Source: an uncultured Anaerolineaceae bacterium
GTDB taxonomy: Bacteria; Chloroflexota; Limnocylindria; Limnocylindrales; CSP1-4
Assembly (NCBI GenBank): GCA_964425305.1
Contig: CAYRMQ010000007.1
Span: 1-47,777, forward strand
DNA: 47,777 nucleotides
Direction: 5' to 3'
The translations under genes and the position numbers were made by a program. The notes below the pieces were generated by a model. It made no database searches and had not been told where the DNA came from. It worked only from the letters and a program-made list of their open reading frames with translations. Shown here piece after piece: positions 1-7,925 of this stretch. The stretch's first letter is position 1. The number at the start of each line of letters is the position of its first letter.

Positions 1-887
<887 letters not shown>

Positions 888-965
888 AAAGAACCAACCT
901 TTCGGCCAGCTCAATTGGTTCGGGGTTTGCCCGCTCGCACTTGCTGATTTCCTACCACTCTTCAC

Positions 966-977: not shown

Positions 978-1016
978 AGCGCCCGAATTCCCTCTGGCTC
1001 CCTGGCGCAGCCGCTC

Positions 1017-1046
1017 ATTATGACACAGTCACACACGGCCCGTCAA
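1017..1046 (-). promoter_or_regulatory. rrn proximal sigma70-type promoter
   Basis: TTGACG (1046-1041), 18 bp spacer ending TGT, then CATAAT (1022-1017), upstream of boxA. Confidence 0.75.
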
Positions 1047-1114
1047 GGTTGATCTCGGGGATCTGGGCGGTCCCAAGCGGGACCTCGGCCGCCTCACGGC
1101 GGTCGCGGACGCAG

Positions 1115-4396: not shown

Positions 4397-4663
4397 GCCG
4401 TGCACCCTCCGTCGACCGGCGGCGGCCGCGTGCCCAACGATGCGATCGACTCGGACCAGGCCGGTCCGCGGCACCCGGCGGACTGCGCTTATCGCTGCTT
4501 CCTTCCGGACCTGACGAGGTTCACGCGCCACCGCTGCGCGGGACCCGATCCTCAACGTCGATCGCTCCGTCGGCATCCGCGGACGCGGGCCTCGGGAGGG
4601 GATTCAGCCCTGCTGGAGCGGATTGCAGGTACAGGGCACCGCTAGTTCCCCGCCTAGCACGGC
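4397..4663 (-). ncRNA. ffs: Signal recognition particle RNA, large bacterial type (Alu + S domains)
   Basis: Minus strand begins GCCGTGCTAGGCGGGGAACTAGCGGTGCCCTGTACCTGCAATCCGC, contains helix-8 TCAGGTCCGGAAGGAAGCAGC and ends GGGTGCACGGC, pairing with the 5' end. It lies upstream of dnaX, with -10 TAGAAT at 4675-4670. Confidence 0.96.
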
Positions 4664-4698: not shown

Positions 4699-5388
4699 TC
4701 AGGCGCTCCAGACAAGCCGGTCGTGAGCGAAATAGACGCGCCGCGGGCGCAGGCTTCTGAGCCGCGTGATCGAGCGCTCGTACGCCGCCCGGTCCGGCGC
4801 CCGCGACCTGCCCTCGCGAGCGCCCGGCTCGCCGGTCCACTCGCCGCGGCTGTACGCCGCCTGGCCGGCGAGAACGACGAGCCCCTCGCGGCCGCCGACG
4901 ACCAGCGACTGGTGACCGACCGTGTGGCCGGGCGTGGCGACGACGCGGATGCCCCGGAAGAGCTGGTAGTCGCCGGCGCGCAGCCTGTAATCGGCGCCGG
5001 CGAAGTCGACCCACTCGAGGATCGTGTGGCTGCCCGCCTGGGCGGCGTGCCACTCGGCCGGCTGGACGTGGATGGGCACGCCCGCCAGCAGGCTGTTCTG
5101 GCCGGCGTGGTCGATGTGCAGATGGCAGTTCACGACGGCGCCTATGTCGGCCAGCCCGAGACCGGCTTCGGCAAGCGCGTCGGGCAGGTGCCGGGCGCGC
5201 GGCCGGTAGCGATCGTCGACGAGCCGGCTGCCGAAGCCGAAGCCGGTATCGAACAGCAGCACGCCGCCGGCGTGGCGGACGACGTAGGCCATGACCACGC
5301 CGATCTGGCCGGCGTCCGGTTCGTCGTCGGCAAAGGTGAACTCGGCCATCTCGAGCGGTGTGATCTCGGGCAGCGTGGCGTGGGTCAT
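4699..5388 (-). CDS. Metallo-beta-lactamase-fold hydrolase (AHL-lactonase-like)
   Basis: LFDTG, HLHIDH (HxHxDH), TPGHTVGH and C-terminal AHD motifs. Confidence 0.88.
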   Translation of the reverse strand: MTHATLPEITPLEMAEFTFADDEPDAGQIGVVMAYVVRHAGGVLLFDTGFGFGSRLVDDRYRPRARHLPDALAEAGLGLADIGAVVNCHLHIDHAGQNSLLAGVPIHVQPAEWHAAQAGSHTILEWVDFAGADYRLRAGDYQLFRGIRVVATPGHTVGHQSLVVGGREGLVVLAGQAAYSRGEWTGEPGAREGRSRAPDRAAYERSITRLRSLRPRRVYFAHDRLVWSA

Positions 5389-5424
5389 GCGCTCGGGTTG
5401 ACACGTGCGGGAGGACGGCGAGGC

Positions 5425-5512
5425 TGGCGGAGAGGGTGGGATTCGAACCCACGACGGGTTGCCCCGTACGGCATTTCCAGTGCCGCGCCCTAGGCCTCTA
5501 GGCGACCTCTCC
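5425..5512 (-). tRNA. tRNA-Ser(GGA)
   Basis: GGAGAGG acceptor stem, anticodon loop CTGGAAA, long variable arm, GGTTCGAATCC, discriminator G + CCA. Confidence 0.97.
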
Positions 5513-5535
5513 GAGGGCGCAATCTTGGAGTGAAG

Positions 5536-5621
<86 letters not shown>

Positions 5622-5695
5622 GTAATCGAGGATACCAAAGGGTCGCCGGGAGCCGGACCGGACAATGGGCGCCGGGGCGGCCGAAAGCCGCCCGT

Positions 5696-6145
5696 CTAGC
5701 GGCGGGCGGAACGAGCGGCGGCCGAGAGCACCTCGGCGGCCTCGGCCTGCATGATCCCCGACACGACGTGGAGGCGGTGCGGCAGATCGTCGGCCTGGGC
5801 CAGCTGGACGGCCGAACCGGCGGCACCCGCGCGCGGATCGGCCAGCGCATAGACGAGCCCGTCGGCGTCCGACTCGAGCAGCGCCCCGACGCACATCGCG
5901 CACGGTTCACGGGCGGTGAAGACGGTCAGCCCGCCGAGCGACGTGCGACCGAGCCGGCGCGACGCCTCGCGCAGCACGACCATCACGGCGTGGGCGGTTG
6001 GATCGCCTGTCGCTTCGACCTGGTCGCGACCGCGGGCGACCATCGCATCGTCCAGCACGGCCACCGCGCCCTGCGGTCGCTCGCCGTTAGCCGCCGCTGC
6101 CCGCGCCTCGGCAAGAGCCGCGCCCATGTACAGCTCGTAGTTCAC
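5696..6145 (-). CDS. tadA: TadA-like deaminase with catalytic Glu replaced by Val (predicted inactive)
   Basis: DPTAHAVM (canonical DPTAHAEI), EPCAMC, DPRAGAAGS; tadA-tRNA-Ser-ffs-dnaX synteny; GTG start at 6145, 7 nt after TGC-TAGGAT. Confidence 0.88.
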   Translation of the reverse strand: MNYELYMGAALAEARAAAANGERPQGAVAVLDDAMVARGRDQVEATGDPTAHAVMVVLREASRRLGRTSLGGLTVFTAREPCAMCVGALLESDADGLVYALADPRAGAAGSAVQLAQADDLPHRLHVVSGIMQAEAAEVLSAAARSARR

Positions 6146-6196
6146 GGCGCCGATCCTAGCATCCGGCTGCCGCCGGGACGTGCTGGTCAAGTCAGC

Positions 6197-7546
6197 CTAC
6201 GGGATTGCCGCGACTGCGTCGCGGACGATGTCCTCAAGGGGTGCACGTCGGCGGACTTCTTCAGCGCACTCGTCGCTGAAGCAGTCTCCGAAGTCGAAGT
6301 AGAGCATCCAGTAGAGCACTTCGTCCTCGGCAAACAGCGCAAAGCTGTCGCTGATCAGGTACCGACGCCCTGCGACCTCCTCGCTCCGAAACGCCTGCCC
6401 GCCGCCACGGCCCAGGACGCCGGCATACATCTCGCCGAGCATCGCCATCATCAGGTCATCGCCGATCAACCCGTCGACTCGATGCGCCCAGATGGAGAAG
6501 GTGCTTCGCGGCGGAGAGGCGACAGCGACCGAGGCGTGCCGTGCCGGCAGATCGAAGTGATGCAGAAACACGCCGTGGAGCCCTGACTCGATACTCTGCA
6601 GGTCGTGGTCGGTCAGCGGACCAGCGGAGTGTATCTCCAGACCAATGCCGCTAACCGTTGTCGGAAGCGTTCTCTCCAGAGCGAGATCACGGCCCGGCGT
6701 GGTCTCCGGTCGGCTGGGCGCGGTGGGTGAGGGCGTGGCATGGGGTGGGGCCGTCGGCTCGGATGAAACGGGGAGGACCGCTTCCGCAGTCAACTGCAAG
6801 GCATCTAGCGGGTTGGGCAGCTGGCGGGCTTCCACGCCATCACGGTAGGCCGACCAGTCGAAAGTGATCACGAAGACTGCCGCTTCCACCCAGCCGATGC
6901 TCCACGGTTCGCCCAGCAGCAGGTCGCGCCGGTCAAGCTCCCACCTGGTACTGAGCGAGGTCCTCGTCCCCGGCCGCAACATCATCTCGGCCAGGTAGGC
7001 GCCGACCACCTCCACCGACCGGCCCACCGGGTAGCCGATGGCCACGATCTGCCAGTCTGGAGGCAGCTCTGCTTCGAAACCCGGCGCCGGCCGGGCGACC
7101 GCGACCTGCAGCTCGGGCGCGGCTATGCCGAGGCGCTGCGCGATCTTTTCGCCGACCGCACGGTCGTAGGCGGGCGGCAGGCGTGCGTCCGAACCAACGG
7201 CCTCCACCAGCATCGGCGTCGAGCCCAGCGCCGCCGGCAGCAGCTTTTCGATCTCGTCGGCGCTCGGCACCAGCGAGGCAGTCGGCGAGGCGCCCGGCGA
7301 AGGCGAGGGGGATAGTGCCGGCGGCGTGCCGGCTGGCGCTGTTGGCGACGGATCTGCGGGCGACGACTCGGCAGCCGAGGCCGGCGGCCCGACAGGAGCC
7401 GGATCGTTGGGAAGCTCGGCGGGCACGGCACGACAGGAGAGTGATACGACCACGGGCAGCGCGACGGCGAGGAGCCCCAGGCGGTGGCGCCCGGGATGAG
7501 CGGCGGCGGGACGAGCCGATGCTACCGGAGGCGTGCCTCTCCGCAT
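6197..7546 (-). CDS. Hypothetical exported/lipoprotein with Pro-rich linkers and two related domains
   Basis: Basic N-terminus, hydrophobic stretch ending VSLSC, two Pro/Ser/Thr linkers; TAAACT 7 nt upstream of the ATG. Confidence 0.75.
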   Translation of the reverse strand: MRRGTPPVASARPAAAHPGRHRLGLLAVALPVVVSLSCRAVPAELPNDPAPVGPPASAAESSPADPSPTAPAGTPPALSPSPSPGASPTASLVPSADEIEKLLPAALGSTPMLVEAVGSDARLPPAYDRAVGEKIAQRLGIAAPELQVAVARPAPGFEAELPPDWQIVAIGYPVGRSVEVVGAYLAEMMLRPGTRTSLSTRWELDRRDLLLGEPWSIGWVEAAVFVITFDWSAYRDGVEARQLPNPLDALQLTAEAVLPVSSEPTAPPHATPSPTAPSRPETTPGRDLALERTLPTTVSGIGLEIHSAGPLTDHDLQSIESGLHGVFLHHFDLPARHASVAVASPPRSTFSIWAHRVDGLIGDDLMMAMLGEMYAGVLGRGGGQAFRSEEVAGRRYLISDSFALFAEDEVLYWMLYFDFGDCFSDECAEEVRRRAPLEDIVRDAVAAIP

Positions 7547-7597
7547 GCGGCGAAGTTTATGGCGCGCGGGAAAGTCGGGCGATCGCAGGAAGGGTAG

Positions 7598-7673
7598 TGG
7601 CGCGCCCGGCGAGACTCGAACTCACGGCCTTCAGGTCCGCAACCTGACGCTCTATCCACTGAGCTACGGGCGC
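7598..7673 (-). tRNA. tRNA-Arg(GCG)
   Basis: 76-nt cloverleaf GCGCCCGTAGCTCAGTGGATAGAGCG-TCAGG-TTGCGGA-CCTGA-AGGCCGTGAGTTCGAGTCTCGCCGGGCGCGCCA; A20 and C35-G36 Arg identity elements; anticodon at 7640-7638. Confidence 0.95.
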
Positions 7674-7677
7674 GCGC

Positions 7678-7769
<92 letters not shown>

Positions 7770-7925
7770 CGCCGACGCCCGATGATAGCACGGGGACCCC
7801 TCCCGGCCGGCCCACGAGGTGGCTTCATTGCGGCCGAATCGATGCGAACGTATGATCATCCTTGATCCAATCGCCCGCGAGAGCCGGACGGACATCTGTC
7901 CGGCTTCTCTGTTTAGAGGTATGGC

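Follow-up and report, generated by a model that had tools for sequence, protein, structure and literature searches.

TadA is treated as a near-universal bacterial enzyme with a single job, and it is essential in E. coli. We analyzed a stretch of 47,777 nucleotides, hereafter the window (contig CAYRMQ010000007.1 of assembly GCA_964425305.1), from an uncultured soil-dwelling member of Limnocylindria, a class of Chloroflexota. The window encodes a TadA homologue that carries a valine in place of the catalytic glutamate and lies close to a gene for tRNA-Arg(GCG). We consider it likely, with a probability of about 0.72, that this substrate-less, Glu-less TadA orthologue has been retained as a pseudo-enzyme that serves a non-catalytic role.

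The closest described system is bacterial TadA itself (EC 3.5.4.33; NCBIfam NF008113; structures 1Z3A, 2B3J, 1WWR and 7CPH). The window protein shares its fold, its zinc ligands (one His and the PCxxC motif) and its gene position upstream of a tRNA-Ser, and the predicted homodimer of the window protein uses the same helices. In contrast to bacterial TadA, it lacks the glutamate, the Asn of the GxN motif, the EVPV strand and the C-terminal FF, is more acidic and belongs to a genome without tRNA-Arg(ACG). A second relative is eukaryotic ADAT3/Tad3, the inactive subunit of the wobble deaminase ADAT2/ADAT3. According to the accessible parts of two papers (PMC8216470; PMC3239186), ADAT3 has its glutamate replaced by valine, retains the zinc triad and has lost tRNA-recognition determinants, and the window protein resembles it in all three respects. 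However, ADAT3 has an extra N-terminal domain whereas the window protein is a single domain of 149 amino acids, and ADAT3 works only together with active ADAT2, whereas no active paralogue is present in two genomes with the His-Ala-Val (HAV) form, G002 and G043, and the window protein has nothing to edit.

A third precedent comes from the Mollicutes, where, as far as the accessible part of Yokobori et al., 2013 (PMC3711424) goes, TadA was lost and tRNA-Arg(ACG) was replaced by tRNA-Arg(GCG) after tRNA-Arg(UCG) had been gained. The tRNA end state is the same in our case, GCG plus UCG without any tRNA carrying adenosine at position 34 (A34), and the presence of tRNA-Arg(UCG) in both ACG- and GCG-carrying families of Limnocylindria fits the idea that it makes inosine 34 (I34) redundant. 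What differs is the fate of tadA, which is deleted in the Mollicutes but kept without its Glu codon, and under selection, in the two Limnocylindria families f1 and f4. Moreover, tRNA-Arg(CCG) is also kept here, and the organisms are free-living with genomes of 2-3 Mb and 70% GC instead of being reduced parasites. Thermotogae and Spirochaetes are likewise described, in the accessible part of PMC8007984, as carrying GCG in place of ACG. In the literature we found no report of a conserved Glu-less bacterial TadA or of tRNA-Arg(GCG) in Limnocylindria or Chloroflexota, a result to which supplementary tRNA tables that may list GCG (e.g. those of PMC6063277 and PMC8007984) form a limit, and no statement that inosine-free decoding of CGN codons is common in Chloroflexota.

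A TadA homologue without the catalytic glutamate

The gene occupies window positions 5696-6145 on the minus strand and runs from a GTG start (6145-6143) to a TAG stop (5698-5696), as given by the open reading frame (ORF) and its translation. The original prediction had placed it at 5696..6158; the stop end stands, while the upstream end was set slightly too far out. GTG 6145-6143 is the likely start: orthologues open with M/V-NYELYM and the 149 amino acid form is present in a large protein collection. A putative ribosome binding site, AGGA at 6154..6157 (minus strand), lies 8 nt 5' of this GTG, and the longest ORF, which would open at TTG 6190, is probably not used.

We aligned the protein without gaps to solved TadAs from B. 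subtilis (7cph, E-value 8e-27) and S. aureus (2b3j) and to the E. coli-derived 8e2q, with which it shares 32-38% identity. HAE of the solved enzymes reads HAV in the window protein: the codon CAC of the first zinc ligand (5990..5992, minus strand) is followed by GCC and then by the valine codon GTG (5984..5986) where the catalytic Glu would be encoded, giving DPTAHAVM. GEVPIGAV has turned into GERPQGAV, ARAHN into ARGRD, by which the Asn becomes Asp, and the C-terminal AFFRELR into AAARSAR. Retained are EPCxMC and the GxxGS loop (as GAAGS). The zinc ligand His (H53) is invariant in a 58-row alignment, and the two Cys ligands are encoded at either end of TGC GCG ATG TGC (C-A-M-C of PCAMC; 5891..5902, minus strand; Cys codons 5902-5900 and 5893-5891). 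The original prediction, made from the sequence alone, had claimed just this combination, namely HAV through a GTG codon, EVPV changed to ERPQ, Asn to Asp and a lost FF next to intact zinc ligands and GAAGS. The alignment to solved TadAs confirmed both the losses and the retained residues. The protein also matches ADAT3 in sequence (7nz7_B, E-value 7e-12).

Homology and fold place the protein in the TadA/Tad2 clade within the deaminase superfamily. Its best sequence matches in the PDB are all TadA, and it scores 71.6 bits with Pfam PF14437 and 63.3 bits with PF00383. The NCBIfam TadA equivalog NF008113 yields 100 bits, below the cut-off of 150; with this model, scores are 87-128 bits throughout the HAV clade and 130-157 for canonical TadAs from Limnocylindria. 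What the protein lacks of a TadA are the catalytic Glu and the residues for A34 and the anticodon loop, that is the Asn of GxN, the EVPV strand and the FF..R of the C-terminal helix, all of which we take to be RNA contacts. The accessible part of PMC8216470 describes the C-terminal helix as required for stem-loop binding.

The predicted structure is that of a TadA. AlphaFold2, supplied with the 58-row alignment, returned the full topology including the C-terminal helix at a mean predicted local distance difference test (pLDDT) score of 93.1. Foldseek template modelling scores over the whole length were 0.90-0.92 to the TadAs of Aquifex, Bacillus, Staphylococcus and E. coli, and the score to mouse ADAT3 was 0.81. 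A model of two copies scored 0.80 against 0.00 for the best control, with runs agreeing in at least 98% of contacts and a partner pLDDT of at least 92, and its predicted interface is formed by residues 44-71 and 83-93, the helices of DPTAHAV and PCAMCVGAL. Of proteins solved as one-chain pairs, 20 of 30 reach the mark applied to two-copy models, compared to 1 of 23 among those solved as single chains. As TadA dimers have been solved, the present pass may reflect resemblance to them.

The missing glutamate is shared by the relatives of the protein. Orthologues from the same genus, present in 20 of 24 genomes (51-92% complete) at 65-77% identity, carry Val at the Glu site in 19 cases and Pro in one. 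A collection of about 5.8 billion proteins gave 6084 matches at E-values of at most 1e-5 among 8000 candidates scored; the best 120 of these metagenomic proteins read HAV (104), HAP (12), HSV (2), HCV (1) or HAI (1), and PCxxC is kept in 119. In a collection of species-representative genomes, 391 stretches encode a relative, and the best 80 loci read HAV (71), HAI (8) or HAL (1) with PCxxC in all 80. By their titles, 74 of these 80 loci belong to Limnocylindria, Limnocylindrales, Chloroflexota or similar, and 6 to Binatia, Methylomirabilota, Dormiibacterota or Patescibacteria. The glutamate is thus absent from all 220 relatives examined (20 + 80 + 120), a pattern far beyond chance. The argument of the original prediction that several independent losses speak against a sequencing error is borne out by this survey of HAV homologues: V, I, L or P stands at the Glu site in 20/20, 80/80 and 120/120 relatives, and the losses of Asn, EVPV and FF are clade-wide. 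Close homologues that retain HAE and EVPV, which would have spoken against the original prediction, were not among them; HAE appears only at about 50% identity or lower.

This boundary was also seen among the best 150 protein clusters built at 50% identity. Clusters at least 50% identical to the window protein read HAV (34), HAP (1), GAV (1) or HAE (2), with the site uncovered in 2, and those below 50% read HAE (105), HAV (3), HGE (1) or HSE (1). Judged by sequence, the Glu-less proteins are a sharply bounded clade. Source records name them "tRNA(adenine34) deaminase", and for the HAV clade this pipeline name is almost certainly wrong.

Arginine tRNAs at the locus and across Chloroflexota

The tRNA-Arg(GCG) gene lies at 7598..7673 on the minus strand (ARAGORN; Rfam tRNA, 69.9 bits), 1.45 kb upstream of the tadA-like gene and in the same tRNA cluster; its anticodon G34-C35-G36 maps to 7640-7638 within the loop UUGCGGA. 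This tRNA stands in for tRNA-Arg(ACG), the substrate of TadA, and thereby points to a cause of the losses that the original prediction had not recognised. The orthologous tRNA reads GCG in 30 of 30 related loci. In the assembly to which the window belongs (237 contigs, 92.9% complete, 3% contamination) ARAGORN called 46 tRNAs, of which 45 are genuine after one was discarded, and no A34 tRNA is among these 45. TadA is therefore without its only known tRNA substrate in this assembly. The arginine anticodons are GCG, UCG, CCG and CCU, and arginine codon usage is 58% CGC, 25% CGG, 6.6% CGU and 5.4% CGA. CGU and CGC are read by tRNA-Arg(GCG), CGA by tRNA-Arg(UCG) and CGG by tRNA-Arg(CCG), so that all CGN codons are readable without inosine. 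A second ARAGORN call of tRNA-Arg(GCG), 79 nt long on contig C10 (34807-34885), was rejected as a false positive on account of its poor structure, its GC content of 77% and the lack of a match in a tRNA DNA search.

The tadA-like gene sits directly upstream of tRNA-Ser(CGA) (5536..5621, minus strand; ARAGORN), 74 nt separating its stop from the tRNA. The same arrangement is found in most of the 80 loci and in the f4 loci. Because the canonical tadA of family f5 also sits directly upstream of tRNA-Ser(CGA), we regard the gene as the positional orthologue of tadA.

We compared tRNA-Arg and TadA across 151 Limnocylindria genomes, including the unpublished G103, G123, G127, G132, G141, G147 and G158, on which alone no claim is based. 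The D-arm is defined strictly in the tRNA patterns, so variants escape them, and a non-match is not evidence of absence. Three states emerged. Family f3 combines the ACG pattern (38/49 genomes; GCG in 2/49) with a TadA match in 46/49, and all 31 of its sequences that were read have HAE and the Asn. Families f1 and f4 combine GCG (39/44 and 46/50) with an HAV-type TadA (model matches in 39/44 and 49/50); ACG was matched in 0/44 and 0/50, and HAV was read in 27 of 27 sequences from f4 and in 6 of 6 from the other f1 genera. Family f2 has GCG in 6/6, ACG in 0/6 and a TadA match in 0/6. The single f5 genome matched neither tRNA pattern (0/1 each) and has a TadA (1/1) with HAE and the Asn. The two f3 genomes that match the GCG pattern, G090 and G139, are exceptions to this scheme.

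The genomes of f2 measure 1.0-1.4 Mb. Their tRNA-Arg(GCG) and tRNA-Ser(CGA) are separated by two unrelated genes, with tadA missing from this interval (loci L050, L052, L054 and L057). By sequence, the two genes look like an NAD-binding dehydrogenase and a small PPOX-like protein. The strict tRNA-Arg(UCG) pattern was matched in 13/44 genomes of f1, 3/6 of f2, 23/49 of f3, 16/50 of f4 and 1/1 of f5. Since this tRNA occurs in all families, a reader of CGA is on hand on both sides of the switch from ACG to GCG. The UCG pattern is repeated in two f4 genomes, with 9 matches in G152 and 3 in G129, spaced about 1.5-3.6 kb apart on single contigs, which looks like local amplification of the tRNA gene or of a repeat that carries it. 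The window's tRNA-Arg(GCG) is 88% identical to the CCG tRNA of its own genome and 71-75% identical to the three f3 ACG tRNAs scored; these figures hint that the GCG gene may not derive from a simple A34-to-G change of an f3-type gene.

The HAV clade is monophyletic, lying on one side of a branch with a Shimodaira-Hasegawa-like approximate likelihood ratio test (SH-aLRT) value of 99. According to their kinship labels, f1 and f4 belong to different orders of the class, and their HAV proteins share 50-60% identity.

The wider phylum was sampled with 251 Chloroflexota genomes, including the unpublished G219, G315 and G340. The GCG pattern was matched in 117, ACG in 6 and neither in 128. Full-length TadA matches of at least 147 bits occur in 18 genomes from families f9, f19, f26, f28, f56 and f61, and the 14 high-scoring TadAs read from other Chloroflexota families are all HAE. 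Matches of 95-128 bits are confined to f1 and f4. Several families have GCG and no TadA at an E-value of at most 1e-15: f8 (GCG in 4/4, TadA in 0/4), f17 (4/5, 0/5), f18 (12/12, 0/12), f21 (5/8, 0/8), f22 (9/14, 0/14) and f32 (7/7, 0/7). Pattern counts are lower bounds, as seen in f9, which has canonical TadA and matches the ACG pattern in only 1/10 genomes. GCG without any TadA is the commonest detected state in Chloroflexota, decoding of CGN without inosine appears to be common there, and f1 and f4 stand out by retaining tadA despite GCG.

The surrounding locus and a second tadA in the assembly

On the minus strand the order of features is tRNA-Ser(GCU), tRNA-Arg(GCG), a 449 amino acid ORF, the tadA-like gene, tRNA-Ser(CGA), tRNA-Ser(GGA), a gene of the metallo-beta-lactamase fold, a large-type signal recognition particle (SRP) RNA and dnaX. 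tRNA-Ser(GCU) (7678..7769) lies directly upstream of tRNA-Arg(GCG), and tRNA-Ser(GGA) (5425..5512) is the second tRNA downstream of the tadA-like gene; both are ARAGORN calls on the minus strand. The 449 amino acid ORF (6197-7546, minus strand), located between tRNA-Arg(GCG) and the tadA-like gene, has an N-terminal part rich in Pro, Ala and Ser and matches no Pfam family. It represents an insertion in the lineage of this organism, because in several relatives the interval holds the tadA-like gene only. A consensus scan of window positions 5300-7900 gave no promoters or terminators. The large-type bacterial SRP RNA (RF01854) lies at 4398-4662 (minus strand) and adjoins dnaX, and a partial 16S rRNA gene (model positions 1-904) at 1-886 (minus strand) is cut by the start of the window. 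Elsewhere in the assembly, on contig C86 (5142-5217, minus strand), ARAGORN called a tRNA-Ile with the anticodon UAU, and the assembly, which is incomplete, yielded no tRNA-Ile(GAU). A tRNA-Ile(UAU) is unusual in bacteria.

The assembly contains a second tadA. It lies on contig C234 (1530 bp), and its product is canonical, with HAE, DVPVG and FFAGRR (469-942, plus strand); the contig also carries a small-type SRP RNA (981-1079, plus strand; RF00169, 67 bits) and, on the minus strand, two tRNAs (164-252 and 326-414). The GC content of C234 is 0.664 compared to 0.704 +/- 0.021 for the genome, its SRP RNA is of the small type compared to the large type in the window (RF01854, 170 bits), and the 24 same-genus genomes gave no match to its TadA. 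For these reasons C234 comes from another organism and is most likely a contaminant of the assembly. In the tree, its TadA groups among outside canonical TadAs. An extra canonical tadA beside the HAV form was also seen in the f4 genome G089, where it is located on a 7.6-kb contig. Neither the single-contig genome G002 nor the 97%-complete G043 contains a PF00383 gene besides the HAV gene.

A probable pseudo-enzyme and its alternatives

We propose that in the f1/f4 lineage the decoding of CGN arginine codons no longer runs via inosine, which leaves the positional orthologue of tadA without a substrate. With Val in place of the proton-shuttling Glu, and without the residues that bind A34 and the anticodon loop, adenosine deamination should not be possible. 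We infer this inactivity because the HxE glutamate shuttles the proton in the cytidine-deaminase fold, as described in the accessible parts of PMC8216470 and PMC3239186. At the same time the gene does not appear to have decayed, given that the protein retains its zinc site, its TadA fold and a predicted homodimer and is under purifying selection. The most likely role would be that of a zinc-stabilised dimer which binds RNA in a non-canonical way or binds a protein partner. Such a binding role is a guess on our part, and the predicted dimer together with the new surface motifs may argue for some binding function.

A specific version of this idea is that the dead TadA dimer is a reader and not a writer that would use its zinc pocket to bind either the G34 tRNA-Arg, at the anticodon loop, or a different RNA. 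Guanine shares its 6-oxo group with inosine, the product of TadA. We put this version forward tentatively and think it rather unlikely to be correct. If true, bacteria would possess a non-catalytic tRNA factor resembling ADAT3.

Evidence for selection comes from 104 distinct coding sequences of the HAV clade, which contain no internal stops or frameshifts. Median pairwise ratios of nonsynonymous to synonymous substitution rates (dN/dS, Nei-Gojobori) are 0.17 for pairs with dS of 0.05-0.5 (n=24), 0.39 for dS of 0.5-1 (n=3436) and 0.30 for dS of 1-2 (n=1887). These values are clearly below 1 and no higher than those of the working enzyme (0.27-0.36 for 14 canonical TadA sequences), and they are rough, as dS is compressed or near saturation at 70% GC. 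The suggestion, made from the single sequence, that the gene remains under selection holds across the clade, with dN/dS of 0.17-0.39 over the 104 sequences and zinc ligands present in 80/80 loci and 119/120 proteins. Among the 104 sequences, only V (94), I (8), L (1) or P (1) occupies the Glu site. The clade has newly conserved motifs, NYELYM at the N-terminus, MCVGAL and GAAG, and the canonical motifs DVPIGA, NRRE, WRL and LNHH are gone.

Several points weigh against a retained pseudo-enzyme. The orthologue search found tadA in 0 of 16 genomes of the sister family f2, and most GCG-using Chloroflexota families have no TadA match, which makes the gene dispensable in some backgrounds. The association of HAV with GCG within the class counts as one evolutionary event and not as repeated evidence, because the clade hangs on a single well-supported branch. 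The dN/dS of the HAV clade, measured with dS near saturation, is no lower than that of canonical TadA. HAV-clade proteins have a median isoelectric point of 5.4, with 1% above 7, compared to 6.5 and 40% for canonical representatives, and this acidic charge, along with the lost RNA-contact residues, argues against anticodon-loop binding in the manner of TadA. Finally, three RNA-type runs (shares 0.05-0.06) covered only the tRNA genes, without meaningful coverage of the tadA-like gene, and they are uninformative on expression.

All three rival explanations that we considered are disfavoured. Some of the above points would suit a slowly decaying relic, whose function was lost when tRNA-Arg switched to GCG and which has so far escaped deletion. 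The absence of the gene from f2 and most GCG-using Chloroflexota shows that lineages can do without it, drift has affected several functional residues, the Asn site varies across the clade (D, E, R, Q, S, C, P or H), the C-terminal end is poorly conserved, and the RNA-type runs show no meaningful cover on the gene. However, a relic does not sit well with 104 distinct coding sequences that are free of stops and frameshifts at dN/dS of 0.17-0.39, or with a state common to two families of different orders whose proteins are 50-60% identical. Nor would it be expected to keep its zinc ligands in 80/80 loci and 119/120 proteins, to confine the Glu site to hydrophobic residues and to acquire clade-specific motifs (NYELYM, MCVGAL, GAAG). 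We therefore regard slow decay as unlikely.

The zinc site might alternatively still be that of an enzyme, acting on another substrate or with another general acid/base. The invariant His and two Cys, the preserved neighbouring Ala residues and EPC motif, and a pocket-forming fold predicted with high confidence would be compatible with this, and Asp frequently occupies the Asn site (14/20 in f4, 5/6 in the other f1 genera). This Asp is, however, not conserved in the organism's own genus. Furthermore, the glutamate is replaced by V, I, L or P and never by D, Q or H, and the genome itself lacks an A34 tRNA. As far as is known, the H/CxE glutamate is indispensable to all characterised proteins of the cytidine-deaminase fold. 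The accessible parts of PMC3239186 and PMC8216470 agree with this requirement, and we judge residual enzymatic activity to be quite improbable.

Hardly credible, in our view, is an inactive heterodimer subunit that works like ADAT3 with ADAT2 next to an active TadA encoded elsewhere, e.g. on C234: the canonical TadA on that contig, the co-occurrence of both forms in G089 and the ADAT3-like Glu-to-Val change speak for it, but C234 is foreign by GC content and SRP RNA type in an assembly with 3% contamination, and has no counterpart in any of the 24 same-genus genomes, G002 and G043 contain no other PF00383 gene, and an active TadA would still find no A34 tRNA to edit.

A single class of Chloroflexota holds a natural series: ACG with an active-type TadA, GCG with a conserved Glu-less TadA, and GCG with no TadA at all. 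This series offers a handle on how wobble editing is dismantled and on whether TadA has a second, non-catalytic function able to outlive its chemistry. The HAV protein would also be a bacterial counterpart to ADAT3, the pseudo-subunit with the same Glu-to-Val change, and bears on how the eukaryotic heterodimer may have started.

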